Shown in pieces: positions 3,224 through 58,365 of a DNA stretch of 60,603 nt (position 1 is the first letter of the stretch; each line of letters begins with the position of its first letter). Position numbers and translations under genes: made by a program. The stretch is from Promethearchaeota archaeon (GTDB lineage Archaea > Asgardarchaeota > Lokiarchaeia > Sigyniarchaeales > SOKP01). Below the pieces are notes generated by a model. It was not told the DNA's origin. It ran no database searches and saw only the letters and a program-made list of their open reading frames with translations. Location: NCBI GenBank assembly GCA_030615235.1, contig JAUWZR010000001.1:1-60603 (forward strand), in the 5' to 3' direction.

Positions 3224-4111
3224 GTGAATAAAATCAAAGCAACAGACAATATAACTTCAAGTATCATTAAATATTTACAGACAAATTTAAAAGGCGATAT
3301 TATTAGTATCTTTGGTATTGGTAGTTATTTTGATAAAAATCTTCCATCCGATTGGAGAAATACTGATATTGATGTAATTGTAATCGTATCTACCTTGGAT
3401 AAAATTACGAAACTCGATTGGACTGATGTTCGTTACGAAGTTAGAAAATTTGATAACCATAATACATGGATAGGATATAACACCATTCAAGGACTAAAAA
3501 CAAAAAAGCTTTTCGTTCAGGAATCCTTCGCAAATTATGAATGGAGTTTAATGGATTTAAAATTTAAAGAAAATTCTCAACTTTTATATGGAAAAGATAT
3601 TAGAGAGCAAGTTCCAGACCCTTTTAATTTTGATTTTGATTATAACGATATTTTAGCTAGATGCCTTTATCATTTGGATAAAAGTCTAAAAGCGAGCCAA
3701 ATTCGGGGGAATTCAGAACAAGCCATGATCGAATTTACAAAAGCGGTATTTAAATTTGGATTCTATTTGTGCCTTTTCTTCAGTAAAAGGTACTATCTGA
3801 CTTCAGTTCATAACATTTCATTACAACTTGATAAATTGTTATTGGATAACGATATACAGACCTCCATGCTTAATTTCATGAAGGAATCCATAATTTTTAG
3901 GAGAACAAATAAATTTTCTAAAAGATTCGAAATAATTAGAAAAAATTATGTGTTATTTACGCTTTTCCTACTCAGAAGTGGAATTCTTCATAGAAAGTAT
4001 GAGTTTCAAGAGTTGTTGATATTCCTCAAAAAAAAGTTTAATGGTATGCCTTATCTTATCTCTTACCTTAAGAAAGCAAAAAACATATTTTATTCTACTA
4101 AAACAAATTAA
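3224..4111 (+). CDS. Nucleotidyltransferase-domain protein (Pol-beta/MNT/KNTase-like fold)
   Basis: The block IFGIGSYFDKNLPSDWRNTDIDVIV fits the G[SG]-x(9-13)-DxD NTase signature. The C-terminal part looks helical. Confidence 0.6.
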   Translation: MNKIKATDNITSSIIKYLQTNLKGDIISIFGIGSYFDKNLPSDWRNTDIDVIVIVSTLDKITKLDWTDVRYEVRKFDNHNTWIGYNTIQGLKTKKLFVQESFANYEWSLMDLKFKENSQLLYGKDIREQVPDPFNFDFDYNDILARCLYHLDKSLKASQIRGNSEQAMIEFTKAVFKFGFYLCLFFSKRYYLTSVHNISLQLDKLLLDNDIQTSMLNFMKESIIFRRTNKFSKRFEIIRKNYVLFTLFLLRSGILHRKYEFQELLIFLKKKFNGMPYLISYLKKAKNIFYSTKTN

Positions 4112-4223
4112 CTTATATTTTTATCATCCCTTCGTTGACACATTTAAATTCAGATTGATAAAGTTAAAAAAAAATAAATTATAAGATCTTACTCAAACTA
4201 TAAAAAAAATAATACGATTTTTA

Positions 4224-4451
4224 ATGTTATTTATACTCCTACAAATCAACGGGTTTCAAGTTCCCTCATTAACTATATGGATATTAGCATGGATTTTTCT
4301 CATAATTGGATTATTAGCTTTGAGTACTTTAGTCGTCTATACTAAATACGGCAGAGAAATATCCATTAAACTCTCTATTATATCGATCAGTATTTCTGCG
4401 GTGTTGTTGGGCTTTTCTTTACACTTCTTCCTAATTACATTTGGGATATAA
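4224..4451 (+). CDS. Small membrane protein (2-3 predicted TM helices)
   Basis: 75-aa ORF made almost entirely of hydrophobic stretches. Confidence 0.4.
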   Translation: MLFILLQINGFQVPSLTIWILAWIFLIIGLLALSTLVVYTKYGREISIKLSIISISISAVLLGFSLHFFLITFGI

Positions 4452-4636
4452 TTCTGCTTGGCGTAATTGAGGATTGACCTTCTTCTAATACAAATACGCT
4501 TTTAAATATTGTAATGAGTTAATTCTTATTTCTTAAAAAATCAGTATTATATTTAATAAATATTTATAAAAGAAGGAGAGTATGTTTTCTTAATTTAAAA
4601 AATAAACTTACTTAAATATTTAATTGGAGCGTAAAA

Positions 4637-5056
4637 ATGTTATTTCAACTAGATCCTACTTTAATGTTTATTCTATGGTTAATTTTAGCAACTGTCATTG
4701 TCGCATTAATCCTATACATTTCGGTATTACTTATAGCATCAAAAACTAAAGCTTCTGATAAAAAATTTGTAATAGTCATCTTAGCTTTTATCTTTGTTTT
4801 GATAATTCCAATAATTCTTGGAGCTATAAATCAAGTGCTAGGCGCAATAGGTGACTTAGTAGCTTTTAGTGGTTCAAACTATTTAACTCAGTTAACACCA
4901 ATCATTGGATTTCTAATAATTTTAGTATTAACTAAATTTTTCATCAGTATTCCGTGGGATCAGGCTGTATGGATATCCCTATTGACACTGTTTTTCCTGT
5001 TCCTTCTCTATACTATGATACCAGAGCTTTATAATTTCTTAGGGTTTGGGCTTTAA
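4637..5056 (+). CDS. Membrane protein (about 4 TM helices)
   Basis: 139-aa hydrophobic ORF, convergent with rpoB. Confidence 0.5.
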   Translation: MLFQLDPTLMFILWLILATVIVALILYISVLLIASKTKASDKKFVIVILAFIFVLIIPIILGAINQVLGAIGDLVAFSGSNYLTQLTPIIGFLIILVLTKFFISIPWDQAVWISLLTLFFLFLLYTMIPELYNFLGFGL

Positions 5057-5077
5057 TTTTTTTAATTTTTTTTTTTT
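5057..5077 (+). terminator. Oligo-T tract, archaeal-type terminator candidate
   Basis: T7-AA-T12 follows directly after the TAA at 5054-5056. A-runs at 5111-5135 could do the same for rpoB on the other strand. Confidence 0.35.
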
Positions 5078-5141
5078 ATAAAATAGTAATTACAGCTTCT
5101 TTGTTCAACCAATAAAAAAGAGTGTAAAAAAGATAATTTAC

Positions 5142-8100
5142 TTAAATTTTTTCTTTCAACTTGAGCCTAGGAGCTAATCCGAGAGACATCATTTCTTGGA
5201 GAAGAAGTTTGAATGCATAAGAGCATACAACCTTAGATATGATCGTTCCTTCCCCACACACCGGACAATATCTCTTATCTCTGTTCCTATCATAAACTGC
5301 AAGAAGCCCACACTTCTCGCAAACTAAGACAACAGTTCTATCGGATTCATCAAGAAGCCTCTCCTTTAATAACAAAGCAGATCCGTGCCCTACTAAACAA
5401 TCTCTTTCCATCTCGCCAAACCGTAATCCACCTTCTCTTGCTCTGCCTTCTGTTGGTTGCCTTGTTAAGATTTGAACGGGTCCTCTCGCCCTAGCGTGGA
5501 GTTTATCAGCAACGAGGTGATATAATTTCTGGTAATAAATCGGGGCGCAGTAGATTCCAGCTTCGTATTGTTTACCCGTAATACCGTTATACATTACTTC
5601 CCTACCGTTAAATTCAAATCCCGCTTCAACCAATTGTTCTTGGAGTTTAGTGATGTCTTTCCACTCGAAGGCAGTTGCGTCTCCTAATTTACCGGTTGAA
5701 CAGGCTATCTTACCGCTAATACCTTCAAAAAGTTGTCCAAGCGTCATTCGTGAAGGCATTGCGTGAGGATTTACAATTATATCTGGAATTACTCCCTTGG
5801 ATGTGAAGGGCATATCTTCAGCTGGTTGAACTAATCCAAGCACTCCTTTCTGTCCATGCCTGGAAGAAAATTTATCTCCTAATTCCGGAATGCGTAAATC
5901 TCTGACTTTAATCTTTACCAGTTTATTTCCATCAACGGTTTCTGAAATGATAACCGTGTCAACAATGCCTTTTTCGTTATGACGCATGTTTTTTGATGTT
6001 TCCCGCCTATTAGGCTGCATTAATTCAAATTCTTCGTAGGATTTAATAAACCGAGGAGGTGAAGTTCTACCGATAAGGACATCACCGCCCTTAACAGTAG
6101 TTTCAGGTTCGATAATACCATCCTCTTCAGAAAGTAATCTATATGATTCAGCAGATTTAAACCCTCTTACGCCTCTCTCTGGTATCTCAAATTTATCTAA
6201 CTCTCCTCCTGGATATTTTCTTTCTTCGGCGTCGTATGTTCTAAAGAAGTGACTCCGAGCTAATCCTCGCTCGATGGAGGCTTTGTTAATTATTATCGCG
6301 TCTTCAATGTTATACCCCTCAAAACTCATCATCCCGATTATGAAATTCTGTCCAGCAGGTCTACGATTAATTCCTATTATTTCCACAGGGCTGGTTTTTA
6401 CGAGCGCTTGTTGGGGGTAATGAAGCGTATGACCCCGCGTATCAAGCCGTAGATGCATGTTTGCCGCGAATAACCCTAAAGCTTGTTTAACCATTCCTGC
6501 TTCGTACGTATTTCGTGGAGACTGGTTATGTTCTGGAAATGGAATAATAGAAGCGCAAATTCCTAATATAGCTGCTGGAGAGATTTCTAAATGTGTGTGT
6601 TCGGCCGTGATATCTTCTTCAAACATCGCAATATAGGCGTTTTCTTCTTCTTCTGCGTCTAAGTATTCTATAACGCCTTTCTGAATTAAATCGGACCAAA
6701 TATACTTACCTAGCTTGAGTTTTTCAATATCTTCCTTTGTAATCAATAATTCCTTATTTTTGATGATAAATAGTGGTCGCGTGGCTCGTCCAGCGTCACA
6801 ATTAATTTGCACCTCTTTAGAATCGTGATAATACCCAATATTAACATGTACACCAATTTCACCTTTCCGCCTCTTTTCTCGAAGTTGATTTGTGAATGGG
6901 TTATATTTTTGATGAATCCCAACTAATTTTCCGTTTAGAAAAATGTTCACTTTTTCTCCTCTTACGCTTTTTACTTCACTTATCGGGATTACTCCGAGAT
7001 CAAATAGTATATTTTCTAAAATTCTTTCGTCTACCCCAACAGAAATTATTGAAGCAAGCGCAAGATTTTTAACTAGCCCACAGTTTGGTCCTTCTGGTGT
7101 TTCTGCAGGACAAATCTTCCCCCACTGCGTAGGATGTAAATCTCTCGCCTCAAAATGGGGTTGACTTCTGCTTAATGGAGATATAACTCTCCTTAAATGG
7201 CTTAAAGTTCCTACGTGATTCGTTCGGTTTAATAATTGACTAACGCCTGCTTTTCCTCCAACCCAGTTACCAGTTGCCAAAGCGTGCCTAATTCTTTCCG
7301 TAATTACATCTGCTCTCACAGCAGTTTTAATATTAGGAGCTCGTCCTCGTACCGCGGTACGTTCTAATTGATATTTTATATCTTTTACTAAGTTCAGAAA
7401 CGCAACTCTAAAAAGAGAAGTGAATAATTCTCCAGCTAATTTCAACCTTTTGTTAGCGTAATGGTCTTTATCATCGGCTTCTCGAAGCCCTAAGTTAAGT
7501 TCCATAACCTTTTGAGCCATCTGTCCTAAGTAGTAAGCTTTTTTGATACGGTCTTCTTCGGCATTTCCAATGTGAGGTAAAAGATACCTATCTAAAACTT
7601 GAAGCGCTCTCCGAATACGGTAGTCTTTTGTTTGGCCAATGGCGACTCTTTTTCCAATGTAATCTAATGAGTTTTGTTGGGATTTCTCAGAGTCTTTTAA
7701 AACCTGGATTTCGGACGCAACATCTATAACTGGAATTAATTCTTTTTGGATATCTTCATTTTCCGAGATAGCTTCAAAAATTTCTTTATCCGAGTGTAAT
7801 CCTAAAGCACGCATTAATATCGCGAGGGGAATCTTCCCAGGAACCGAAGGAAAAGAAACTCTTAAATTACCATCTTTCTTTCTCTCAATAGTTACTGGTG
7901 CCCGAAATCCACTTCTCGTTGAAAAAACCTTTGCTTGGTGTGTGGCACTCGAGCTTCGACTTGCCTCTTCGGCTAAAATTCTATTAGGGGCTAAATCTTC
8001 TTGAGTCACCAGTACGCGCTCTGTTCCATTAATGATAAAATATCCTCCTGGATCAAGTGGATCTTCTCCTCGATTAACTAACTCTTGTTCAGTCAAATTT

Positions 8101-43251: not shown

Positions 43252-43356
43252 AATGAAAGTATAATTTAAGAAAACATTATAAAGAGATGAATTAAAATTA
43301 CTGAAGATAAGTATAAACCAGAAGAAATTAAAGCTCTACTTGATAAATATGGTACC

Positions 43357-44571
43357 GTGTATTTTGAACTGGATATAATTGAAGAAGTAGATGATATAGA
43401 AGGTAATGAAGACCAAAAAGAAAGGTTAGATGATTTTTTTAGAACATTGAATAATTATACAAAATTTGCAAATAAATTAAAAAAAACTAAATTATCACCT
43501 AATTTAACAATGCTCTTATATGGCCCTCCAGGCACAGGAAAAACATCATTAACAAGAGCTTATTCTCTAAAATATAATATTCCCATCTGTGTTGTAGAAT
43601 CTAATAGATTAGTCTCTTCTTTATTAGGTGATACAATTAAAAATATTCGAAGAGTGATTGAAATTGCTGCTGATATATCAAAAAAGAATGGTAATTTCAT
43701 TCTATTTTTTGATGAAATTGATGCGATTGGTTCCGAGAGATCTAATGTACATGAAGTCGGGGAAATTAAACGAGCAGTAATAGCTTTTTTGCAAACTATT
43801 GATTTAATTAGTTATAAAAGCCTCCCTTTAGCTATAATTGGGGCCACTAACCATCAGCAGCAACTAGATTCGGCAATATGGCGACGATTTACATTTCATC
43901 TTCAATTCGATTTTCCTAATTATGAAATTAGATCAAAAATAATAAAATCTTTTATAAAAAGAATAGAAGATGCTGGGATAGCAGTTAACGATTCTATTTC
44001 TGATGAAATCGATTTAGAATATAATAAAATTCGATTAATTATAGAAGGAATAGAAAATTCTGATGATAAATTAAATAATAATCTTATCATGAAGGAAGTT
44101 AAAAATCAGGAAATAAACGGATTAATTACATTAACTGATGGATATTCTGGATCTGATATTGAGAGAGGTGTAAGAGTTGCATTATTCAAAGCAATTGGCT
44201 CGTTTCCTACTGTTGAGAATATAGATTATGATATTCTTTATAAATCACTAAAGTTAGTTGGAGGAACAGCAGTTCATGTAAATCGACAGGAAATTCTCAG
44301 CCTCTCGGGTCCAAGTTTTGAAAAATTAGATGAATTTGATGATAAACTTGCTTTATCCGATTTTAATGTAGAATTTAAAAATTTTGAAGAATTGCTAGCA
44401 CAGTCACACAAATTAACACCAATATTAAAAGAAATTAATAATATCTTGGAACATCGGGAGGGTTTAAAAAATGATTATCATCAACGAATAAGTGAAGAAT
44501 TCGTAAACTTTATTACGACATTAAAAGATTTAAGCAAAATATTAAAAGATAAAAATATTGTAAAAGATTAA
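43357..44571 (+). CDS. Island gene 5: classic-clade AAA ATPase (Vps4/katanin/CDC48-module-like) with a C-terminal helical extension
   Basis: Walker A LLYGPPGTGKTSL, Walker B ILFFDEIDAIG, and a second region of homology GATNHQQQLDSAIWRRF. The frame is open upstream to an ATT at 43291, so the start is uncertain. Confidence 0.85.
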   Translation: MYFELDIIEEVDDIEGNEDQKERLDDFFRTLNNYTKFANKLKKTKLSPNLTMLLYGPPGTGKTSLTRAYSLKYNIPICVVESNRLVSSLLGDTIKNIRRVIEIAADISKKNGNFILFFDEIDAIGSERSNVHEVGEIKRAVIAFLQTIDLISYKSLPLAIIGATNHQQQLDSAIWRRFTFHLQFDFPNYEIRSKIIKSFIKRIEDAGIAVNDSISDEIDLEYNKIRLIIEGIENSDDKLNNNLIMKEVKNQEINGLITLTDGYSGSDIERGVRVALFKAIGSFPTVENIDYDILYKSLKLVGGTAVHVNRQEILSLSGPSFEKLDEFDDKLALSDFNVEFKNFEELLAQSHKLTPILKEINNILEHREGLKNDYHQRISEEFVNFITTLKDLSKILKDKNIVKD

Positions 44572-44591
44572 AATAGAAAAAAGTAGAAAAA

Positions 44592-45044
44592 ATGTTTGAT
44601 TTAGATTATGATACAAAATACGTCTCTGTAGTTATTGAGTTTAAATATAACTCTAAGAGTAGTAAAAATATACCTAATGAAGTCAGAGAGGCTTTTATGG
44701 GGTTATATCCTCCTAAACACCCAAGTGGAAGAGGAAGTCCAATTTTAAGGGATATTAATAACTTATGCAATCCTAATGAAGAGGTTCTTTATCCGATTCA
44801 CTTTTCTTTAATTAAAAAGCCCGTTAAAATCGATTTGCCTGGAGTAAGAGAATATAAATTAAAAAATACAGCTGTGGGGGCAATAATTTTATATGAATAT
44901 ATAGGCCTTCTTGATGATTATAAAGATTGCTGCCTTAAAATAGCTGACTTTTTAGAGAAAAAAATTAAAAAACCTAAATGGTATTCAGAAATCACTTCAA
45001 TTAAACTAATTATAGGGTACGATTTAAAGGATGTCGCAAAATAA
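44592..45044 (+). CDS. Island gene 6: 150-aa protein, paralogue of 47206-47670
   Basis: Shares REAFMG, PPK.P.GRGSP, PIHFSLIKKP and NTAVGA.ILYEY.GL blocks with the 154-aa ORF on the other side of the Rad50-like gene. Confidence 0.6.
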   Translation: MFDLDYDTKYVSVVIEFKYNSKSSKNIPNEVREAFMGLYPPKHPSGRGSPILRDINNLCNPNEEVLYPIHFSLIKKPVKIDLPGVREYKLKNTAVGAIILYEYIGLLDDYKDCCLKIADFLEKKIKKPKWYSEITSIKLIIGYDLKDVAK

Positions 45045-45165
45045 AAAAATAATAGAAGAAATTGTTGATTATATTGAATCTTCAATTCGAGATGGTTTAG
45101 ATGAAGCAATTTTTATTAAAGAATTTCGGAATAAAATAGAAAAATATCTGAGTGAAAAGCAATAA
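45031..45165 (+). CDS. Possible 44-aa helical mini-protein translationally coupled to the Rad50-like gene
   Basis: The ATG at 45031 overlaps the end of the previous gene. Its stop forms TAATG with the 45165 start. Product is MSQNKKIIEEIVDYIESSIRDGLDEAIFIKEFRNKIEKYLSEKQ. Confidence 0.3.
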   Translation: MSQNKKIIEEIVDYIESSIRDGLDEAIFIKEFRNKIEKYLSEKQ

Positions 45166-47174
45166 TGAAAGCAGTCTTAAAATTAGTAAATATTGGGCAA
45201 AGAGAAGGGGAAGAAACTTGGGAATTTAACAGTGGAGTAGTAACAGAGATCAGAGGACGAACAGCTTCTGGTAAAAGCAGAATACTTAAATCTTGTGCAT
45301 TAGCTTTATCAATTCCAATAATCTCAGAAGAAATTAGAAATACTGCTATAAGTTTTGGAATTGCAAAAGCAGATAATGCAAAATTTTCACCCCTATTGAA
45401 TTCGAATAAAGAAAAAGCCATTATTGAACTTCATTATGATGAAGTTAAAAAACTTGTTGAAATAAATCGTGATGGTTCTGAAAAAATAAATATTCCTGGA
45501 AATCAAAAATTTATTTATTGTAGTATGCTAGTAGAAAATTCTAAAATACAAAATTATATCGATCATGGCCTATCTGATTTTTCATGGATAGTAACTGAAA
45601 TGTCCTTAGCAAAAGATTATGAATCAATAAAGGACATTGTTGGATCTTATACAGATTTAATTACAGCTAAAAAAGAAGAAATTCAGATAAAGGAGAATAA
45701 TAAAAAAAAGTTTGAGGGAGAATTTAAAAAAAAAAAAAGTGACCTAGCAGAAGTAATTGAGAAAATAAGACTACTCGAAGTTAATATTGAACAGGAGCTA
45801 GAAAAAATTGAATCGAATACAGAATTGAAAAATGAACGTAAGAAAATTATTGATGAACTCAAAGATAGACAAAAAATTATTATGGATACTGAAAAGAAAT
45901 TCCTTAGTCTAAAGAAAACTGTTACTGATCTAGATAATAAGATAAACGAAAAAAACACACAAATTGAAGATGAAACGGAAAATTTGGATAAATTGGAACA
46001 GAAAAAAAAGAAATATATGAAAATAGATGTGAGAAAATTAAATAACGAAATTAATCAGCTACATGAAGAAAATACGATGAATCTTGAAAAACAAAAGTTA
46101 TTATTACCTGAGATTAGTATATTAGAAAACAGCAAAAAGAAGTACGAAGGTATTTTAAGAGAACTAGATAAGACAAAAGAAAAAAAGGTTCTCTGTTGGG
46201 TTTGTGGGGGAAAAGAAATAGAAAGAAATGATATTGAAAACGATTTAAAAAGCACAAGAGATAAATTAACTCCTAAACGCGAAAAATATAGAGATTTAGA
46301 CTCTCAGATCGAAGAAAATAAGAATAATATAGATGATAAACAGAAAGATAAGGCAAAAAATGCTAAACTTCCTGATGTAAAGAAAAAAGTTGCATTGTCA
46401 AGAAATAAATTGATAAAACTAGCAGAAGAAAATAGCATTAATGTAGAACAAAAAAATAAGGAAGATATGGATATAAAAAGGTTTACAACAATTATCGAGA
46501 GTCGGAAGAAAACCATTAATCAATTAATAGAAAAAAGAAATGAAATCGAAAAACAAATAATTGATGATTCTCAAATGAACAAAACGAGGGAAGAAACCAA
46601 AACACAAAATACGAATAAGGGTGCTATTGAAAACCAAATCTCAAATTTAGAATTAGCCATAGATGATTGTAAAAGTATAGAAATTTTTAAAAAAGAATTT
46701 GATCTTTTAAAAGCAAAAAAAATTGTTCAAGAATTTGATGACATCTTTGATAATATTAATTTTCATCTAGAATTGAATATAAAAAAACAACGAGAAGGAG
46801 CTGCACATAAGTTCAATGAAAATATTGAAAAAATAATTGAAGAACTTAAATTGCCTAAATTTGAAAAAATTTATCTAGATATTGAAGATAATAATAAATT
46901 AAAAATTATAAGAAAAGGTAACCCTGACCCTCAAGCAATTAACTCTCTGAGCGGGGGTGAGAGAGTAATTGTTTCATCATTACTACAAATATCTGCTAAA
47001 GAAACTTACAATCCTGAGATACCCTTTATTGTTGGTGATGATATTATTATAAAAATGGATGAAGATCGTAGAGAAATTTTCTATAACTATTTAAAGAATA
47101 TTGCTAAAGATAATGATTGGTTTGTGATATTAACCAGAGTTACTGATGAAGATTTGGTAAAAGTAGAAATTTAA
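45165..47174 (+). CDS. Island gene 7: Rad50/SbcC/DndD-like SMC-family ATPase with a central CxxC hook
   Basis: N-terminal P-loop GRTASGKS, about 450 aa of Lys/Glu-rich coiled coil with CWVCGG at its centre (46194-46211), C-terminal signature LSGGERVIVSSLL, and Walker B-like PFIVGDD. Confidence 0.8.
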   Translation: MKAVLKLVNIGQREGEETWEFNSGVVTEIRGRTASGKSRILKSCALALSIPIISEEIRNTAISFGIAKADNAKFSPLLNSNKEKAIIELHYDEVKKLVEINRDGSEKINIPGNQKFIYCSMLVENSKIQNYIDHGLSDFSWIVTEMSLAKDYESIKDIVGSYTDLITAKKEEIQIKENNKKKFEGEFKKKKSDLAEVIEKIRLLEVNIEQELEKIESNTELKNERKKIIDELKDRQKIIMDTEKKFLSLKKTVTDLDNKINEKNTQIEDETENLDKLEQKKKKYMKIDVRKLNNEINQLHEENTMNLEKQKLLLPEISILENSKKKYEGILRELDKTKEKKVLCWVCGGKEIERNDIENDLKSTRDKLTPKREKYRDLDSQIEENKNNIDDKQKDKAKNAKLPDVKKKVALSRNKLIKLAEENSINVEQKNKEDMDIKRFTTIIESRKKTINQLIEKRNEIEKQIIDDSQMNKTREETKTQNTNKGAIENQISNLELAIDDCKSIEIFKKEFDLLKAKKIVQEFDDIFDNINFHLELNIKKQREGAAHKFNENIEKIIEELKLPKFEKIYLDIEDNNKLKIIRKGNPDPQAINSLSGGERVIVSSLLQISAKETYNPEIPFIVGDDIIIKMDEDRREIFYNYLKNIAKDNDWFVILTRVTDEDLVKVEI

Positions 47175-47205
47175 AAATTCATAGGTATTATCTTGAGGTA
47201 TTTAA

Positions 47206-47670
47206 ATGAATAGTGGAGATAGATATGTTTTAGTAATAGCTGAATTACAATATGATTCGAAAAAACCTAGATCAATAGTAAATGATATTAGAGAAGCTTT
47301 TATGGGAATTGTACCTCCTAAATATCCCGAAGGAAGAGGAAGTCCAAATATTTCGAAAAAAATTAGAGATATGTGTAAAATTGATAAAGATATTATTGAT
47401 CCTATTCATTTCTCTTTAATTAAAAAACCTGAAAAAATAGTCAATGCTGAAGGAAGGACCTACACAATAAGAAATACTGCCGTTGGTGCTATGATATTAT
47501 ATGAATATTTAGGTTTAGCTAAAGATTTGAGAAGATTCCTCAATATTTTTGATGAATACCTCAAAAGATTGATAGAAAGCAAAAAACCACAATTTTTCTC
47601 TTATATTACTAACTACGATATAATAATAGGTAATAAAATAAATGATATTTCAGTAACTGAAAACATATAA
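47206..47670 (+). CDS. Island gene 8: 154-aa protein, paralogue of 44592-45044
   Basis: Carries the same conserved blocks as gene 6. Confidence 0.6.
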   Translation: MNSGDRYVLVIAELQYDSKKPRSIVNDIREAFMGIVPPKYPEGRGSPNISKKIRDMCKIDKDIIDPIHFSLIKKPEKIVNAEGRTYTIRNTAVGAMILYEYLGLAKDLRRFLNIFDEYLKRLIESKKPQFFSYITNYDIIIGNKINDISVTENI

Positions 47671-47740: not shown

Positions 47741-48343
47741 ATGAAAATACCAGATTTTTCAGAAAAAGATTTTATTGGGATAAATGGAGTAGGAAGAGCA
47801 CAATTATATCATCCTCATTTTGATGTTTGGCAATCTTTTTTCAGAAATAGTTTTAGAATTGAGGGAAGCATAAGTAGTATAATTTTTTTGCCGTGTGCTG
47901 CTATTAAACCCTATTATAATTCTCCAATCCATCGAGTTTTCAATAAAACTATTGACAAATACAAAAATATTCAAAAATTTGTCATATCAAACGCGGGTTT
48001 AATACCCTATGAATTCTGTGATCGGTATCCATTCGAATCTTATGATTGGAATCCACTTTTTGAGACAGAAGAAATAAAAAATGAATATATGGAAGCTATA
48101 AGTACAAGAATATTTGACTTCTTTAAGAATAGAAAAATTAATATTAAAGTTAAATTCATTTCTTATTTAAGGAACGATTCAGAATCGCTGAACTCACTAA
48201 AAATTGCTTTCAAAAAATTAAAAATGAATTTGGAAATAATAAAAATAACTGGAAAACTTCATGAGACAGCAGATACTGACTTATTATTAACATTAGAAGA
48301 AAATTTAATACGATTAAATAAAAAGTTAAAATCATTTGAATAA
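47741..48343 (+). CDS. Island gene 9: DUF5591-like (archaeosine-synthase ArcS C-domain-like) protein
   Basis: IIFLPCAAIKPYYNSPIHRVF resembles the PC-x3-KPY-x-S-x-H block I associate with the ArcS/DUF5591 domain. It lies 8 nt upstream of a TGT-like gene. Motif-level call only. Confidence 0.45.
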   Translation: MKIPDFSEKDFIGINGVGRAQLYHPHFDVWQSFFRNSFRIEGSISSIIFLPCAAIKPYYNSPIHRVFNKTIDKYKNIQKFVISNAGLIPYEFCDRYPFESYDWNPLFETEEIKNEYMEAISTRIFDFFKNRKINIKVKFISYLRNDSESLNSLKIAFKKLKMNLEIIKITGKLHETADTDLLLTLEENLIRLNKKLKSFE

Positions 48344-48351
48344 GTATTTTT

Positions 48352-49404
48352 ATGGATTATTGGGCAGGAGAATTAGGAAATAATTTTATCGAAGGAATAC
48401 AACACGGCAATGTCATGGATAGTGTGTATAATTTTCTGAAATCAGAGGAGCCCAAAATAAAATATCCCTACGAAAATTTATTTTTAGACAATGGCGCCTT
48501 TTCAATATTTAAGAATAACTATAACAAGAAAAAGAATGAAGTACAAATAAATCTTAATAGCATCATCGATATCCAAGAAAAACTCAAACCAAAATTTACA
48601 ATTCCTTTCGATTATCCATTAGATCCCCAAATGAATATTAAAAATATGGAACAAAATTGGCAAAAAACAGTGAAAAATGTTGATTATTGGACTAGTTGTA
48701 CTAATCTTAATCTTGTTCCTGCGCTGCATGGATGGAACAAAACTTCTCTAAATAAAAATCTTCATTTATTACAAAAAAAAGATTTTGATTACATAGCTTT
48801 AGGAAGTGCCTTTATTCTAAAGGAGAAATTCAAAGGATTTTTTGGAGATCGCCAACCAAATAAAAACATTTATGAAGCATTTTTATACCTCAGTTCCCTA
48901 GGTAAAAATCTAGGTATTGATATTCATGTATTTGGACTTGGAGCTTCTCCATTGACTTATCATTTTGCTGCGTTCTGTGAAATCAAAAGTTCTGATTCTT
49001 CAGGATATAGGAGAAAAGCAGCATACGGAAAAATTATCTTACCTCAAACAGCAGAAAGATATGCCGGTAATGGAAGTGCTACTTTTGGATTAAAAACTAA
49101 AAATGGATTGACTTATAAGAAAATCTTTTCTAATGAAGAAAAGAAAAAATTAGCCGAGTGTGGGTGCCCTGAATGCCGAAAAATATCCAAACATGGATAC
49201 CGTCGATGGAAACATTTATGTTCCGATTGGAAAATTAGAGCAATTCATAATAAATGGGTAATGGAACAGGAAGAAAAGATTTCCCACGAGTTAATTCAAC
49301 AAGGTTGGGATTGTTATGAAGAATTTATTAATAAAATGATGGAGAAATCTCGCTTAAAATGGCTTTGGGCTTTTATAAGAAAAACAAAACAAAAATATTT
49401 TTAA
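48352..49404 (+). CDS. Island gene 10: small tRNA-guanine-transglycosylase-superfamily protein without a PUA domain (DpdA-like candidate)
   Basis: The TGT zinc site and following helix are CGCPEC-x21-AIHNKW (CxCxxC ... HN). FLDNGAFSIF resembles the catalytic DSGGFQ block. At 350 aa it lacks the N-terminal ArcTGT start motif and PUA. Confidence 0.65.
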   Translation: MDYWAGELGNNFIEGIQHGNVMDSVYNFLKSEEPKIKYPYENLFLDNGAFSIFKNNYNKKKNEVQINLNSIIDIQEKLKPKFTIPFDYPLDPQMNIKNMEQNWQKTVKNVDYWTSCTNLNLVPALHGWNKTSLNKNLHLLQKKDFDYIALGSAFILKEKFKGFFGDRQPNKNIYEAFLYLSSLGKNLGIDIHVFGLGASPLTYHFAAFCEIKSSDSSGYRRKAAYGKIILPQTAERYAGNGSATFGLKTKNGLTYKKIFSNEEKKKLAECGCPECRKISKHGYRRWKHLCSDWKIRAIHNKWVMEQEEKISHELIQQGWDCYEEFINKMMEKSRLKWLWAFIRKTKQKYF

Positions 49405-49539: not shown

Positions 49540-51879
49540 TTAATTTATAAAAGGAAATTTAATTTCTACAGGGTCATGTTTTCCCATGCTCGTAATATAA
49601 GCATGTCCTTGTGGAAGATGTTTCAGTCGTTCTATATCTTGCTTATTATTAAAGTATTCCTTCAAGTAGTTGCTTCCACTTCCTTGTGTCTGAAGGAATA
49701 TTTTGGTATTACACAGATCAATAATTTCTTTTTTCACATCCATGATACTCTGGGTCGCAAATGCTACTCCATAGTCTCTTTTCCTACCACGATGTACGAT
49801 TTCGTCTAAGAATTTAACAATGCGCTTTAAGTATTCCGAATCTGATTGTGATTTCGATTTGGGAAGGAGACGTTGGATTTCATCCAAATGTAAGAAAACT
49901 TTAAGTTTTTCTTTTCCTTTCAAAGCACGTTTATGAAGAATAGCTAATAAATATAACGCTACAATTCGTTGATGTGAATCTCTCAAAATGTACGAATTAA
50001 TTACTGTTATATTACCAGGGATTAACATGGATTCAAAATCTATTGGTTCTACTTCGGGCAAATCGAAGATTCTTAGAGAGATGGAATTCAACGCCCTTCT
50101 TATTGCGGACTTAGTTCCAGATGTTGCGCTATATATCTCATTTTCCATATAATAGAAAATAAATTTCTTTAGTTCTGGAAGTGTAAACTCCTTTCCCTTA
50201 TTTTCTTCAATAATATCATAAATTATTGTTTGCAAAGTATCGTGAGATATTGGTGTCAATTCGTGTAAGAAATAGGGTAAATCAACAGGATCAATCGCTT
50301 TTAAGGTAAGGCAAAAACCTTTATCTGTATCTATATTAATGAACCTAAATTTATTGATGTTAAGAGCATTAATTCTATGTAGCTTCATTAATTTCTCTGA
50401 TTGCTTGGTAGAAGGAATATTTGCTAAATTACCATATTCTCCTTCATTATCAAGTATAATTTGTGCTGGAGAATCTTTCTCTTGAGCAATTAAAAGTGAG
50501 AGTAATTTCAATGCTGATGTTTTCCCAGAACCTTGTTGCCCACTCATGAACACACTTTGATATAAAGTTCTTATTTTAAGCAAATATGGAACTCCTGTAT
50601 TTAACCCTTGTATGCTTGCAATTTCTATTCCATTTTGAGGAATTTTTTTAAATTCACAGAACTCGTTTTGCGTTGGTATTTTGATTTTTCCGCCTATTAT
50701 CGTTTGTGGGTTCAGTGCCTGATATCCTTCAGGTGTAAATTGCCCAACGGGAATCAATGTAATTTTATAGTTATATTCTTTATGACTTGAAGTTTCTCCA
50801 GGAAAATAATCTTCAGAGCATTCTATTTTTTTAACAATGCACATTATTCTCACTCCATCCTCCTCTTTTTCAACAATCACACAATATCCATCTCTTACGA
50901 GGTGTGCTTTATTAGGATATAAATATCCTTTCATCTGGTTATCACCGCCCATTACAAGCTCAAGAGGTTTTCCCTTTACAGTGTTAATGCTTCCTAAACA
51001 ATAATCATCATCTTCAGATATCCCGTTAGAATTATATTGATTCCACGGATCACTGGGTGGTGTGGTTGGTGCAGATGTATTATGTAATTCACTTATTTTG
51101 GCATGGCTCTCTTTAACATCATTATGATCTTCATCATTTTCAGAGGTAAACTCAAAAGTAATACCGTTAAAACCTTCAAATGCTGTATTCATAGCAAATT
51201 TTACTGCAGTTTCCCTTAAATCATCCGTAAATTTATAAGAGACAACTTTATTTGGAAAATATACTAACTGAACGACTCCGCATTTCTGATGCCTCGCTTT
51301 TTCAAAAATAATTCCATATAGGCAAGTTTGCATAAATTCTCTATGATTTTTTAAATTTAAATTGCTCATTTCATCATTTTTGTTTAATTCATACGATTTA
51401 AATTCTCTTATTATAAATTTCTCTGAATCTAGCTCAACCAAACAATCAACTCGAGCATTAATTTTCAAGCCACCAATTTTTCCAATCTCTTCAACTTCAA
51501 AAGAAGCTTCTCCACCAAAGAATTCAATTTCAATCTTTTTTGGTATAACAATAGCATAATTATTTTTAGATTGCATTTTCGCAACTCTGCGTATATCTTG
51601 ATGTAAAGAATTTAATAACACTTTAGTGTCCTCATGATATATCTCATAATCAGGATTCTTTTTGATATCTGCCAAGATATCAATCTTATACTTTGTCAAA
51701 TTCTGACTGAAAACTCTATAATTCATTTTGTTTCTTTTATTCCCCCCTTTGAAAATTCTTTTATAATATGTTGTGGATGCTTGATGTAAAACTCTTCCAC
51801 GTATTCCCCCATGCTCATATATTACCTTACCATAGACATTATCTAATAAACCACTTACAGATTTTTTACATTGATTCAT
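49540..51879 (-). CDS. PD-(D/E)xK (Cas4/RecB-like) nuclease domain fused to a HerA/FtsK-type (DUF87) ATPase
   Basis: The N-terminal part has RVDCLVELDSEKFIIREFKSY (D ... ExK) and MQTCLY (QxxxY). The C-terminal part has Walker A GQQGSGKTS, Walker B VFLHLDEIQRLLP, and FATQSIMDVKKEIIDLCNTKIFLQT, typical of HerA-like ATPases. Confidence 0.75.
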   Translation of the reverse strand: MNQCKKSVSGLLDNVYGKVIYEHGGIRGRVLHQASTTYYKRIFKGGNKRNKMNYRVFSQNLTKYKIDILADIKKNPDYEIYHEDTKVLLNSLHQDIRRVAKMQSKNNYAIVIPKKIEIEFFGGEASFEVEEIGKIGGLKINARVDCLVELDSEKFIIREFKSYELNKNDEMSNLNLKNHREFMQTCLYGIIFEKARHQKCGVVQLVYFPNKVVSYKFTDDLRETAVKFAMNTAFEGFNGITFEFTSENDEDHNDVKESHAKISELHNTSAPTTPPSDPWNQYNSNGISEDDDYCLGSINTVKGKPLELVMGGDNQMKGYLYPNKAHLVRDGYCVIVEKEEDGVRIMCIVKKIECSEDYFPGETSSHKEYNYKITLIPVGQFTPEGYQALNPQTIIGGKIKIPTQNEFCEFKKIPQNGIEIASIQGLNTGVPYLLKIRTLYQSVFMSGQQGSGKTSALKLLSLLIAQEKDSPAQIILDNEGEYGNLANIPSTKQSEKLMKLHRINALNINKFRFINIDTDKGFCLTLKAIDPVDLPYFLHELTPISHDTLQTIIYDIIEENKGKEFTLPELKKFIFYYMENEIYSATSGTKSAIRRALNSISLRIFDLPEVEPIDFESMLIPGNITVINSYILRDSHQRIVALYLLAILHKRALKGKEKLKVFLHLDEIQRLLPKSKSQSDSEYLKRIVKFLDEIVHRGRKRDYGVAFATQSIMDVKKEIIDLCNTKIFLQTQGSGSNYLKEYFNNKQDIERLKHLPQGHAYITSMGKHDPVEIKFPFIN

Positions 51880-51885
51880 TTTTTA

Positions 51886-52236
51886 TCACATCTCATTTTG
51901 TTCAAACAATTCAAAATATCCTTCAGAGTTTCTGATTAAATCTAGCACATCTAAAGTTGTTTTATTAAGGAATAACGAATCATTTTTTTCTGCTAAAAAC
52001 TTCGAAAATATCTCTAATGAATTTTCAAATTGGGAATAATTTTCAGAAATAAGATTTCTTAATAAAATCTGGCGCTCTAATAGAGAATATTGAGTTAATA
52101 TTTCCTTTATAAAAACATCAACATCGTCGAAATAAATTACATTACCAAATTTTAAATTAGCTAAAATATTTTTAATTTTCTCATAAATATGGCAATTTTC
52201 TTCTTTAAATTTTGAGAAAAAAGTATTATTGTTCAA
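51886..52236 (-). CDS. Hypothetical 116-aa protein, co-operonic with the nuclease-HerA gene
   Basis: Lies 6 nt upstream of the 779-aa gene on the same strand. No recognised motif. Confidence 0.45.
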   Translation of the reverse strand: MNNNTFFSKFKEENCHIYEKIKNILANLKFGNVIYFDDVDVFIKEILTQYSLLERQILLRNLISENYSQFENSLEIFSKFLAEKNDSLFLNKTTLDVLDLIRNSEGYFELFEQNEM

Positions 52237-55449: not shown

Positions 55450-56343
55450 ATGACAAAATATGATTTATTCAACTTGGAAAAAATCCAAGAATTAACTAGC
55501 CCGATTGAAGAATTTGAAGGAAAAATAGTCAATTTTGGGATTAACTTTGAAAGATTTCGCAAAACTAGAAATAAAACTCTCCATAAGATAAAAGATCAAT
55601 TATTTATAGAAGAAATTGAACAAATCTTTCTTGAATTTGACACACTCTATAAGCAATTATCTAAACAATCAATTAATATTATTTTAAAATTTCTCTTTTT
55701 TCAAGAAAAACTTACGAAAGAACATGCAATTTTATTCAAACAAAAATTAAAAGATTCTAATTTAAGATTAAACGAATACGGATTACATTTAATTGAAACT
55801 AAAAAAATCCGTAGAATTCATGATAACACCTTAGTGATCTTTGCCCCATCTTTAGATCTATGGTTAGAAGTATTAAACTCATTAAAGAGAAATTCTCTAT
55901 ATTTATCTTTTATAGAGAAGGCTAAGATTATTTTAAAAACTAAGGAATATATACCTATTGAAGAAATTTCTACTCAAAATGAACAAACAATAGAAAAAGA
56001 ATCTAAATCTGAACTTAATAAATATGAAGAATATCTTAAATATACGAATAAGGAATTTCAAAAAAGGAGACGGAGAGAAAAAAGAACTAATTTAGTAAAA
56101 CTTCAAGAAAAACCAGCTATCCAAATTGAGGTAACTAAGGAGGTAACAGAGAAAATTGAAGAATATAAATCTAAAATGAAAACTGACTTCAATAGGAAAT
56201 ATTTTATTCAAAAAGATGAAGAAAAAGATCCAGTATCGTTAATAAAAGATTTAAAAAAAAAAAAAAAGGAAGAATACAAAATACATTTAGAGAAAATACA
56301 GAAAAAGAAATCAGGTGAAAATTCAGATACTAGAACGAATTAA
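55450..56343 (+). CDS. Hypothetical protein with a Lys/Glu-rich C-terminal half
   Basis: 297-aa ORF that overlaps the next gene by 29 nt. Confidence 0.45.
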   Translation: MTKYDLFNLEKIQELTSPIEEFEGKIVNFGINFERFRKTRNKTLHKIKDQLFIEEIEQIFLEFDTLYKQLSKQSINIILKFLFFQEKLTKEHAILFKQKLKDSNLRLNEYGLHLIETKKIRRIHDNTLVIFAPSLDLWLEVLNSLKRNSLYLSFIEKAKIILKTKEYIPIEEISTQNEQTIEKESKSELNKYEEYLKYTNKEFQKRRRREKRTNLVKLQEKPAIQIEVTKEVTEKIEEYKSKMKTDFNRKYFIQKDEEKDPVSLIKDLKKKKKEEYKIHLEKIQKKKSGENSDTRTN

Positions 56344-57847
56344 TATAGCAGATAATGAAATTGATATAAAAAATCAATTTACACTTATACTAGGTAAATT
56401 TAAAAAAGAACAAATAAATCAGTTTCAAGAATTTAATACATATGATTTATTTGAGGATTTTAATGTTATATCTTTTGAGACAATTTTAACTATATTTAAA
56501 AATGAAATACATAATGTAAACTTTCTAAGATTTGTTGAAATTCTTGATCCTTTTCTTAACACTACCAAATTTTTTATTCAATTAATAGGAAAATACAGTG
56601 AATTAACTCAATTTTTTGATCAATCTTTACGACTTAGGATATTTGCAAGTGAAAATGAGAATTTAGAAAAACTCTTAGAAATTCGGAAGAAAATAGATGA
56701 AAAAAACACACCAAAAGTAAAAGAAATTTTAGATGAAATCAGAGATTTAAATAATTTGATTATCGAAGAAATAAAAACATTAAATTATTTAGAAGAGGAT
56801 TTTATTAACCAAAAAATGAAAATTGATCGATTTAACAAATCAATAAACAATCTTCAGATAAAATTAAAGAATTTAGACACACAAAAAAAAAAGGCGCTTA
56901 AAAAAATTAGTGTAATAACAGGAGAAAATGAAGATTCAAGAGATATGGATGAGGAATTAACAGATTCTCAAAGGATTTTAAAATTTCAACAACAAGTTAG
57001 AGATTTTAATTATGAAATGAAGAAAATTAATGAGAATATTCATAAAGAGAGTACCGAATTTCGAGAGTTTAAGCTCAATTTTTTGATAATCGAAGAAGAT
57101 TATAAACTTCTCAAAAGCACAATAAATGGTTATAATAACAAATTAAATGAACTTAAAAAAGAATTATCTAAAATTATTGATACAGAATTAGGTGATTTTG
57201 AAATGTCCGATCTCCTCAAATCACATAATCAAATTATTAAACATTTCGAAGAAAATGACCTTAAAATAAAAAATATTCAAAAACATAAATTTTTTGACAA
57301 AAACCAATCCGATGCTCTATCAACTATATATAAAGAATTAGTTAATATCAAGTCTAATCTAACTAAAAATAAAATTAATTTTACTAAAGATGATATAGAA
57401 AAATCTGTAGATTTTTATCAAAATATTGAATCTAAAATTATAATATTAGAAGAAATAATCAATAAATTTTTAATGCAAATCTATTTGAAATATTCCCTCG
57501 AAATTACAATAAATGATAATAAGAATTTATTTATTAAACAAAAATTCTTCCAAATAAGAAAAAAAACCACTCTAAACTTCAATGAATTGACAACTCCAGA
57601 AAAAATTTTTTTCTTAATTGTCTTAGATATTTCATTGAGAATTTTATTTAATAAAAAAATAATTTATTCGAATATGTTTTTACCAGTAATCTATAATAAA
57701 CAAGGTTCAATATTTCGAACTTTAAAAAAAATTATTCCAGTGTTCGAAAGGGAAACTGAACTTCAAGACATTAGTTTGATCTTTATTTTATCTAATATAG
57801 AAATGAAAGAAAGAATAACGAATTTAGATGTTATCAAAATCAAATAA
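56315..57847 (+). CDS. SMC/Rad50-like coiled-coil protein with degenerate ATPase motifs
   Basis: The N-terminus KIQILERINIADNEIDIKNQFTLILGKFKKEQ has the strand pattern of an SMC head, but GKFKKE replaces GxxGxGKS/T. A long coiled coil follows. The C-terminal LTTPEKIFFLIVLDISL sits in place of LSGGE. Confidence 0.45.
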   Translation: MKIQILERINIADNEIDIKNQFTLILGKFKKEQINQFQEFNTYDLFEDFNVISFETILTIFKNEIHNVNFLRFVEILDPFLNTTKFFIQLIGKYSELTQFFDQSLRLRIFASENENLEKLLEIRKKIDEKNTPKVKEILDEIRDLNNLIIEEIKTLNYLEEDFINQKMKIDRFNKSINNLQIKLKNLDTQKKKALKKISVITGENEDSRDMDEELTDSQRILKFQQQVRDFNYEMKKINENIHKESTEFREFKLNFLIIEEDYKLLKSTINGYNNKLNELKKELSKIIDTELGDFEMSDLLKSHNQIIKHFEENDLKIKNIQKHKFFDKNQSDALSTIYKELVNIKSNLTKNKINFTKDDIEKSVDFYQNIESKIIILEEIINKFLMQIYLKYSLEITINDNKNLFIKQKFFQIRKKTTLNFNELTTPEKIFFLIVLDISLRILFNKKIIYSNMFLPVIYNKQGSIFRTLKKIIPVFERETELQDISLIFILSNIEMKERITNLDVIKIK

Positions 57848-57882
57848 AGAAGTGAAGATATCTGAGTAAAAATCAAAAAGAA

Positions 57883-58365
57883 ATGATAAGAGAAATTGCA
57901 AAGCTAATTTTAACAAATAAAAAGAAAATGGTAAAAGAAGAAGATTTAATAAGACTCTATGATAAATCTACTTCGGATTTTGACGAAACTTTTAAAGATC
58001 TATATGAACAATTTAATAAACTAGGTTTTGAACTTATAAAGTCAGAATTTCAAGGGAATAATTATTATGTTTTAACATCAGAAGGTAAGGATGATAATAT
58101 AACTCCAAGCCAATATGGTAGTTTAGCACTTATTGCTGCATTATCTAAGGAAGTAAATGAGAACATAAAAATTGAGGATCTAAAAGAAATATTCAAAGAT
58201 CAATGGAATTTAGATATTAAATTTCTTATAGATAATGATTTTTTAAGGAAAATTGACGATTTGGGAATAGTTAAAATAACTCCAATCGGAAAAGCTATAT
58301 TAAAAGAAATTCTGCCTGATTTATCACTAGACACACTATTAGATATATTTGAAGTTGAAGAATAA
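57883..58365 (+). CDS. Hypothetical 160-aa protein, last gene of the island (possible winged-helix)
   Basis: Operonic with the preceding genes. It has a weak resemblance to small wHTH partners of SMC-like proteins, which is not enough for a call. Confidence 0.35.
   Translation: MIREIAKLILTNKKKMVKEEDLIRLYDKSTSDFDETFKDLYEQFNKLGFELIKSEFQGNNYYVLTSEGKDDNITPSQYGSLALIAALSKEVNENIKIEDLKEIFKDQWNLDIKFLIDNDFLRKIDDLGIVKITPIGKAILKEILPDLSLDTLLDIFEVEE

Follow-up and report, generated by a model that had tools for sequence, protein, structure and literature searches.

DNA phosphorothioation of the Dnd type pairs a coiled-coil ATP-binding cassette (ABC) ATPase with a small DNA-binding partner, with DndB and with DndC, an enzyme of the phosphoadenosine phosphosulfate (PAPS) reductase family (PMC10853773), and the known phosphorothioation cores contain either DndD or the hook-bearing PbeC together with a small co-evolving partner (PMC10853773, PMC12839542). 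A zinc hook is also carried by the vast majority of archaea-specific SMC-related proteins (ASRPs; ClsN or coalescin, Sph1 and Sph2), a family defined in 2022 by Yoshinaga et al., in which ClsN shapes chromosome compartments (PMC9389158). Here we describe five tightly packed plus-strand genes at 43.3-47.7 kb in the open reading frame (ORF) list of a 60,603-nucleotide stretch of DNA from a Promethearchaeota archaeon (contig JAUWZR010000001.1; this whole stretch is referred to as the window). They encode an AAA ATPase, two paralogous small proteins (A and B), a mini-protein and an ASRP-like hook ATPase. From the gene context we infer, with somewhat more confidence than doubt, that these genes form the core of a DNA-modification or defence module, archaeal and for the most part from Asgard lineages, of the kind represented by Dnd and type 4 BREX systems.

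To our knowledge, ASRP is the one broadly distributed archaeal family that resembles structural maintenance of chromosomes (SMC) proteins, and its function is known solely for ClsN in Sulfolobales. Judged by its sequence, the 669-residue ATPase of the block is a divergent member or relative of this family. The NCBIfam ASRP model (NF045487) matched residues 10-659 over profile positions 2-591 of 593 with 183.2 bits (E 8.3e-54), a score that lies below the curated cutoff of 300 bits; the homologues in two related loci, L012 and L015, scored 199 and 213 bits. As in ASRPs (∼600-700 residues, ABC head halves at the N- and C-termini, a coiled coil of ∼350 residues), the protein has an N-terminal Walker A motif, a C-terminal signature and Walker B motif, and an antiparallel coiled coil with an apical CxxC; the motifs GRTASGKS (Walker A), CWVCGG, LSGGER and FIVGDD are found at positions 31, 344, 595 and 621, respectively. 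The window ATPase differs in keeping the canonical LSGGE, whereas LSESE or LSDSE is found in sequences of the Sph and ClsN types. The archaeal distribution of ASRPs also applies here, because the window is archaeal core chromosome that holds an intron-containing tRNA-Tyr, RpoB, both PolD subunits (DP1 and DP2), Orc1/Cdc6, RtcB, Elf1 and Lsm, and the closest relative comes from Promethearchaeota Loki_b32 (L005).

An AlphaFold2 (AF2) model of the ATPase on 32 homologues (predicted local distance difference test score, pLDDT, 87.9) comprises ascending helices at residues 149-337, a hairpin at 341-353 and descending helices at 354-501. C344 and C347, both invariant in the 32 homologues, sit in this predicted hairpin, which places the cysteine pair at the coiled coil's apex. 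An earlier note on this DNA had listed the five genes with their motifs and had placed the CxxC at that position; all five genes and the quoted motifs are indeed present, and the model agrees with the position of the hook. The same note considered it peculiar that a Rad50-like hook ATPase should be so short and lack Mre11. These features hold, but they are no anomaly: the full-length ASRP match identifies a known kind of protein, and most members of the ASRP family carry the hook, with no requirement for Mre11. A wider homologue search with the ATPase was saturated by low-complexity coiled-coil words, and the scored set consisted of 36 close relatives.

Small proteins A and B are 47% identical over 144 residues (E 4e-44), which confirms their presumed paralogy. 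They were also thought to lie outside known families, and no match was found in Pfam, NCBIfam, PADLOC or PDB sequences, including a profile search of the latter. The AF2 model of A (pLDDT 82, predicted template modelling score 0.75) has the topology beta-alpha-alpha-beta-beta-alpha-beta, and on this model the proteins form a new family with a predicted ferredoxin/RRM-like fold. Foldseek searches of PDB and BFVD gave weak generic matches only, for example HPPK, ribosomal uS10 and dimeric ferredoxin-like proteins (TM <= 0.46). The earlier note had proposed such a search for HORMA, KITE, kleisin or Mre11-capping folds; chains of these kinds were absent from the 50 best matches listed, and the four folds were rejected on the basis of the AF2 model and the Foldseek results. 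Likewise, the small proteins do not qualify for an SMC-kleisin-KITE complex, as they lack Pfam and PADLOC matches and their predicted fold is not a winged helix; the sole hint of such a subunit is a weak MksE match (E 0.003) in an unrelated gene for 160 residues farther downstream.

An exhaustive profile search of 1.84 billion representatives returned 72 members of the small-protein family at 50% identity, and clustering of the family at 90% identity left 76 clusters; when a broad alignment was used for another word-indexed search, few members were gained. Conserved motifs are PNxxRR in helix 1, PxxFSLIKxP in strand 2 and NxAxGAxxxYxY in strand 3, and the ratio of nonsynonymous to synonymous substitution rates (dN/dS) was 0.10-0.32. 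In other lineages, the second copy may follow the gene for the PAPS reductase, be missing altogether, or be joined to the first copy. Such tandem fusions, with two copies in one chain of 260-340 residues, account for nine of the representatives, which argues that the functional unit of the small protein is a dimer. When compared with Loki_b32, small protein B (L005 10751-11209) is far more diverged than A (dN 0.37 versus 0.05), although their ATPases share 84% identity, which points to an exchanged cassette or to rapid evolution of B.

The mini-ORF shares 14 nt with the gene for A, and its own TAA stop overlaps the ATG of the ATPase gene as TAATG. An ORF of 39-49 codons whose stop overlaps the ATPase start (as ATGA or TAATG) was seen in the 10 loci inspected in detail and in nearly all further loci, over a GC content range of 26-53%, and its dN/dS was 0.26-0.51. 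Conserved length, stop/start overlap and dN/dS mean that what had been noted as a possible coupled mini-ORF is a real gene. To judge from the sequence pattern, its product is probably a helical hairpin.

The comparison covered 19 related loci fetched via individual proteins and 30 from a metagenome scan (labelled L001 etc.), which were mapped with phmmer; their GC content spans 26-53%, and the named sources are Loki-, Hel- and Thorarchaeota. A scan of GTDB genomes found two species, but since it needs exact peptide patterns this number is no measure of the prevalence of the module. Of the 30 scan loci, which were reached through the small protein, 28 have the ASRP-like gene next to a small-protein gene, and the remaining two are a short contig and a third paralogue. 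Small, mini and ATPase genes are adjacent in all independently fetched loci too, irrespective of GC content. Over ∼45 related loci, the invariant core of the module consists of small protein, mini-protein and ASRP-like ATPase. The block is thus conserved as a unit with this trio as its constant part; the AAA gene is missing from some variants.

Beside this core lies a gene for a PAPS-reductase-family enzyme in every locus that reaches far enough. Orthologues of the window enzyme adjoin the module in L001, L003, L006-L008, L012, L015, L018, L019, L022, L038, L041-L044 and L046. In PADLOC the window enzyme matched BrxP with an E-value of 2.4e-51 (172.9 bits), SspD with 1.5e-20 and DndC with 1.8e-5. 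An enzyme of a sulfur-insertion family is thereby linked to a putative DNA-handling ATPase, as is characteristic of phosphorothioation-type systems. A second recurrent partner is a DGQHR protein, encoded in the window, L001, L009, L012, L018, L019, L036-L040 and L049, and directly upstream of the small-mini-ATPase trio in L036-L040 and L049. The window protein matched DpdB in NCBIfam (2e-23) and PADLOC (7e-29), and Pfam DndB with 29.3 bits (cutoff 29.1). A PglZ-domain protein is encoded between the ATPase and PAPS reductase genes in L038 and L049, and another one in L012. While the earlier note was right about the block itself, it had missed this context, namely the PAPS reductase, DGQHR protein, DpdA-like TGT, HerA and PglZ encoded downstream or in relatives.

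The pattern can also be recognised in published data. The neighbour table of the ASRP study lists 'ATP-binding protein, hypothetical, ASRP, hypothetical, PAPS reductase' for Methanohalobium evestigatum, and for Bathyarchaeota, Desulfurococcaceae, Thermococcus AM4 and Heimdallarchaeota it has AAA ATPases in the vicinity of ASRPs (PMC9389158). These arrangements would, by analogy, be equivalent to the present module. The authors who defined the ASRPs saw no consensus neighbourhood, though their own table holds the pattern (PMC9389158); the window ATPase, in contrast, is part of a conserved operon with small protein, mini-protein and PAPS reductase. The module gives most of the ASRPs seen here that are neither ClsN nor Sph a concrete and testable context, with putative dedicated subunits and a candidate DNA-modification enzyme.

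Partners resembling DndB and DndC/BrxP, PglZ proteins, and the nucleases, helicases and methylases found in the same islands form a signature of phosphorothioation-type immunity as in Dnd, Ssp and BREX type 4 systems, and we therefore propose the following model. The ASRP-like ATPase would dimerise via its zinc hook and act as a DNA-clamping or DNA-scanning motor, in parallel to DndD in Dnd systems and to BrxC/SspC in BREX type 4 and Ssp systems. The ferredoxin-like small protein would function as a dimer, made up of two identical chains in loci with a single gene, of A and B in the window, and of a fused tandem elsewhere. Together with the helical 44-residue mini-protein, this dimer may provide dedicated accessory subunits at the ATPase heads or at the base of the coiled coil, a position comparable to that of DndE, of kleisin and KITE proteins or of the Mre11 dimer in other SMC-like machines. 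The Mre11 dimer with its helix-loop-helix Rad50-binding domain offers a structural analogy for the small-protein dimer plus mini hairpin. The complex would recruit the BrxP/SspD-like Fe-S enzyme, most likely for the introduction of sulfur into the DNA backbone, and the DndB/DpdB-like DGQHR protein would regulate or target this enzyme. The classic AAA protein could then be an additional remodelling factor by which the complex is loaded, reset or taken apart. Gene identities, folds, hook position, paralogy and conserved linkage come from the analysis itself; complex formation, DNA binding, modification chemistry and a role in defence are deduced from the context.

The similarity to Dnd and PbeC systems lies in the combination of a coiled-coil ABC ATPase with a small partner that co-evolves with it, a DndB-like protein of the DGQHR/ParB fold and an Fe-S enzyme of the PAPS reductase family, and with PbeC-type ATPases it extends to the zinc hook and a tiny, fast-evolving protein alongside (PMC10853773). 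However, the small partner has a predicted ferredoxin-like fold and DndE is a double ribbon-helix-helix protein, the PAPS reductase is nearer to BrxP/SspD than to DndC, and DndA, DndFGH and PbeA are absent from the window. With BREX type 4 and Ssp systems the module shares the BrxP-like PAPS reductase with its 4Fe-4S region and, in L038, L049 and L012, a PglZ gene directly by the ATPase gene. It differs from them by an SMC-type ABC ATPase in place of the ORC/Cdc6-type BrxC, by the lack of BrxL and DUF4007/SspB and, in the window, by the lack of a recognisable PglZ.

Several points weigh against this proposal. Phosphorothioation of Asgard DNA, like the function of the module, is a prediction from gene context only. 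The ATPase matched neither DndD nor PbeC models (none in PADLOC at E<=0.1, and no NCBIfam (TIGR) DndD model at E<=0.01), and the small proteins are not DndE-like, with no DndE domain detected by Pfam in the small or mini-proteins. Neither a cysteine desulfurase nor a constant nuclease effector was seen, nor was a PglZ recognised in the window. RNA and small molecules are substrates of PAPS-reductase-fold enzymes as well. In other lineages the short AAAs have DDID for DEID and the window AAA has no aromatic pore-loop residue, which makes the remodeller role a guess. Furthermore, the characterised ASRP, ClsN, is a chromosome-compartment protein and not a defence factor (PMC9389158), and in Lokiarchaeia the locus occupies a fixed site between Elf1 and Lsm, within a core part of the chromosome close to Orc1/Cdc6 and PolD, which fits vertical inheritance.

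These last two points would also suit a chromosome-organisation complex, in which the ASRP acts as a coalescin (ClsN) or SMC protein, small and mini-proteins are its non-SMC subunits, the AAA protein is a loader or unloader, and the modification genes belong to an unrelated island at the same hotspot. ASRP is the sole strong full-length family match of the ATPase, and ClsN shapes chromosome compartments (PMC9389158). The Lokiarchaeal synteny from Elf1 to Lsm lies ∼15-25 kb from the Orc1/Cdc6 and PolD genes, and dimeric accessory subunits are typical of SMC-like machines. Nevertheless, the linkage to PAPS reductase and DGQHR genes holds across unrelated contexts and GC contents (L015, L018, L019), and the genes can be tightly packed in one direction, as for DGQHR-small-mini-ATPase-PglZ-PAPS reductase in L038. 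In addition, the ATPase scores under the ASRP equivalog cutoff, the small-protein family is patchy (72 representatives among 1.84 billion), and its surrounding cassettes are variable, as is typical of defence islands. On balance we regard a chromosome organiser as unlikely.

Matches of the ATPase to other defence ATPases raise a different possibility. LmuB of PADLOC weakly matched the window ATPase with an E-value of 8e-6 and the L015 homologue with 3.6e-23, and LmuB and JetC were among the structural matches. A Lamassu- or Wadjet-like sensor would use the hook ATPase and the small subunits to detect foreign DNA ends or plasmids and would trigger an effector, such as the AAA protein, the upstream unknown proteins or nucleases, with the host DNA left unmodified by the module. 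That the AAA core is nearest to anti-phage IetA, and that nucleases and a helicase occur in some islands, agrees with this idea. What makes it improbable is that the constant partner is a PAPS-reductase-family enzyme and not a nuclease or other constant effector, that the LmuB matches are partial, coiled-coil-dominated and far weaker than the ASRP match, and that no equivalents of LmuA, LmuC, JetA, JetB, JetD or IetS were found among the window proteins scanned. Distant homologues of the ATPase likewise gave weak matches to DndD and PbeC in which the coiled coil dominates, and the identities DndD, PbeC and LmuB were all rejected against the full-length ASRP match.

Structural comparison of the ATPase by Foldseek returned Rad50 first (1e-15), followed by Smc5/6, MukB, LmuB and JetC, and among PDB sequences only the C-terminal lobe of Rad50 was matched (5e-4). 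The module shares with Rad50-Mre11 and Lamassu the SMC/Rad50-superfamily head, the antiparallel coiled coil and the apical zinc hook, and a dimeric accessory is expected; it is set apart from Lamassu by the absence of LmuA and LmuC and by marginal sequence similarity. This best structural match, the zinc hook and the position of the L015 module beside a Rad50-Mre11-HerA-NurA operon could point to a DNA-repair complex in which a Rad50-like tether works with novel partners in place of Mre11. Yet L015 has a separate canonical Rad50 and Mre11, the constant partners of the module include no nuclease or phosphoesterase, its distribution is patchy, and PglZ, BrxP and DGQHR partners are hallmarks of defence. 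Moreover, the coiled coil of the ATPase has ∼350 residues versus ∼600-900 in Rad50 (about half), the likeness in sequence is marginal, the block contains no Metallophos gene that could stand for Mre11, and no NCBIfam Rad50 model matched at E<=0.01. A repair function is therefore highly unlikely, and the DNA-modification module of the Dnd/BREX type 4 kind remains our preferred reading.

The AAA gene is a frequent but replaceable accessory of this module. The motifs GPPGTGKT, FFDEIDAIG and GATNHQQQLDSAIWRRF and the Pfam AAA match support its earlier assignment to the classic AAA proteins. Its best profile match was PADLOC IetA (3.3e-60, 202 bits), with TRIP13 at 8e-19; NCBIfam IteA gave 181.7 bits, under the 510-bit cutoff, and the nearest relatives in PDB were VAT/p97. 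Walker A, Walker B (DEID), the sensor-1 N and the RR finger are kept, and pore loop 1 reads SLLGD. In other lineages its position is held by short AAAs of 244-260 residues, whose pore loop is KWGEAE and whose Walker B reads DDID. They are closely related to one another (E 1e-55 to 1e-70), as a single family, and remote from the window AAA (E 1e-4 to 1e-10). The AAA gene is thus common among the related loci but not universal, being swapped or dispensed with. Although the AAA core is most similar to IetA, no IetS protease was matched among the 20 window proteins scanned with PADLOC, the C-terminal half of the window AAA differs, and other lineages use a short AAA or none. An IetAS identity was rejected on the absence of IetS and the IteA score below cutoff.

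The earlier note had further speculated that an AAA remodeller next to two small adaptors resembles TRIP13-HORMA logic. An AAA protein is indeed encoded beside adaptor-sized proteins, and the weak TRIP13 match is expected for any classic-like AAA. The idea found no structural support, however, since the small-protein model is not a HORMA fold, the AAA is IetA/p97-like and it is dispensable in some variants. The start of the AAA gene had been placed at 43291. This is an ATT codon right after an in-frame TGA, and the first canonical start is GTG 43357; still, the 22 codons from 43291 up to this GTG match the orthologues, and the N-terminus is uncertain for this reason. The in-frame TGA within 43288-43356 corresponds to TGG in the AAA orthologue of L001, and it could reflect a start-site shift, a sequencing error or readthrough.

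A more far-reaching version of our model, which we consider doubtful, would hold that the ASRPs outside the ClsN and Sph clades are not chromosome organisers but the motors of a widespread archaeal SMC-based immunity by DNA-backbone modification. Hook ATPase, ferredoxin-like dimer and 45-residue hairpin would load a BrxP-type enzyme onto DNA, and in many lineages a dedicated, minimal AAA unfoldase of the classic clade, its pore loop being KWGE, would thread a small subunit to open or reset the ring. If true, prokaryotes would thereby offer an example of SMC loading and unloading under the control of an AAA protein. If the preferred reading itself is correct, the module represents a new architecture of the phosphorothioation/BREX type, with an SMC-like motor that replaces BrxC or DndD. 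Already known are the family of the hook ATPase, the clade of the AAA protein and each of the enzyme partners. In the literature we found no description of an ASRP-based defence or modification system, nor of an archaeal IetA, and the small-protein family, the mini-protein, a companion family of ∼320 residues (X320), their obligate linkage to ASRPs and the use of an ASRP as a Dnd- or BREX-4-like motor appear to be undescribed. The three protein families lack annotation anywhere.

The related loci show three architectures. Architecture I, the Lokiarchaeal one seen in the window, always lies between Elf1 and Lsm and has the order four unknown proteins, IetA-like AAA, small protein A, mini-protein, ATPase, small protein B and a variable cassette. 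This cassette comes in two forms: one contains DUF5591 plus TGT, HerA, DGQHR and PAPS reductase, and the other consists of PAPS reductase with a third small paralogue, an HhH-GPD nicking enzyme and a C5-methylase. Architecture II, the PglZ type (L036-L040, L049), lacks the AAA gene and runs DGQHR, small, mini, ATPase, a PglZ-domain protein of 930-952 residues and PAPS reductase. Architecture III, the X320 type (L015, L016, L018, L019), has one or two X320 copies, short AAA, small, mini, ATPase and PAPS reductase, in some cases with DGQHR and nucleases. X320 proteins have an N-terminal Cys-rich (Zn) ribbon and no Pfam match, and in the non-Lokiarchaeal variants they are encoded before the short AAA (for example L018 8299-9258). 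L012 unites PglZ, PAPS reductase and DGQHR with a short AAA, a fused small protein, mini-protein and ATPase. Other island genes encode GIY-YIG and HNH nucleases (L019) and a ResIII/ZorD-like helicase (L049).

Two of these loci showed additional features. L022 (11191-14233) carries two tandem modules on one metagenome contig; the first is window-type, and in the second an L018-type ATPase is accompanied by a small protein of double length that arose by fusion (334 residues). Divergent to the module of L018 lies a gene for a second hook-bearing ABC ATPase (3633-7256, minus strand; 614 residues; Pfam Rad50_zn_hook, PADLOC LmuB 1e-37), with partners of 590 and 1346 residues in the same island, which gives it a Lamassu-like look.

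Table 1. Features of the module and its neighbourhood in the window (positions in nucleotides).
Feature	Position	Strand	Basis
Four co-directional genes before the AAA gene: 502, 321 (Zn-ribbons), 417 and 431 aa	38214..43251	+	No family matches
Classic-clade AAA ATPase, IetA-like subtype, 404 aa	43357..44571	+	Pfam AAA 8.7e-28; conserved codons reach up to 43291
Small protein A, 150 aa, new family, ferredoxin/RRM-like predicted fold	44592..45044	+	AF2 model
Mini-protein, 44 aa, translationally coupled to ATPase gene	45031..45165	+	Conserved ORF
ASRP-like SMC/Rad50-superfamily ABC ATPase, 669 aa, apical CxxC zinc hook	45165..47174	+	NCBIfam ASRP
Small protein B, 154 aa, paralogous to A	47206..47670	+	47% identity
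DUF5591 protein (200 aa) and TGT-like protein (350 aa), DpdA/ArcTGT-resembling	47741..49404	+	Pfam DUF5591 1.8e-11, TGT 8e-9
HerA/FtsK-like ATPase (779 aa) and 116-aa partner, variable cassette	49540..52236	-	PADLOC HerA 4.5e-17, mad8 1.6e-16
DGQHR-domain protein, DndB/DpdB-like, 507 aa	52398..53921	+	TIGR03187 DGQHR 83.2 bits (cutoff 58.85)
PAPS-reductase-family enzyme, 4Fe-4S domain, BrxP/SspD-like, 457 aa	54006..55379	+	Pfam PAPS_reduct 4.7e-40 and Fer4

The genes around the module are listed in Table 1. The four upstream genes are limited to the Lokiarchaeal variant; they have the same order in L001, L003, L005, L009, L011, L020, L022, L034 and L043, and no orthologues were detectable in L012, L015, L018 and L019. 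The DUF5591/TGT cassette gave weak matches to ArcS, TgtA and DpdA of NCBIfam. It is variable, being present in L005, L009, L011, L020, L027, L028 and L034 and exchanged in L003 and L006-L008 for a C5-methylase, an HhH-GPD 'type II nicking endonuclease' and Smr. The split DUF5591 plus TGT-like protein (with a CGCPEC zinc motif) near a DGQHR/DpdB-like gene resembles a DpdA/DpdB pair, which hints, at the level of sequence, at 7-deazaguanine insertion into Lokiarchaeal DNA. The HerA/FtsK-like pair is conserved in L001, L005, L009, L034, L037 and L038; the N-terminal ∼400 residues of the ATPase are uncharacterised, and PDB sequences gave no match.

Downstream of the PAPS reductase gene, at 55450-58365, lies a trio of genes for proteins of 297, 510 and 160 residues (g297, g510 and g160), which is also present in L003, L007, L043, L044 and L046. 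The 510-residue protein is rich in coiled coil and has a weak SMC match, and the 160-residue protein, encoded 10 kb downstream of the module, has a weak MksE match (E 0.003). The trio may represent a second SMC-accessory-like set. For these three proteins, the four upstream proteins and X320, searches of Pfam, PADLOC, NCBIfam and PDB sequences and local hhalign comparisons gave no usable match.

Finally, a lone distant homologue of the small proteins, P0168 (162 residues), is encoded without an ATPase gene nearby in L013 (8228-8716) and L014 (4899-5387). Both contigs look like those of viruses or mobile elements, with 47% GC, a D5_N/DUF5906 primase-helicase and many tiny ORFs, and P0168 could be a decoy or an anti-defence copy.

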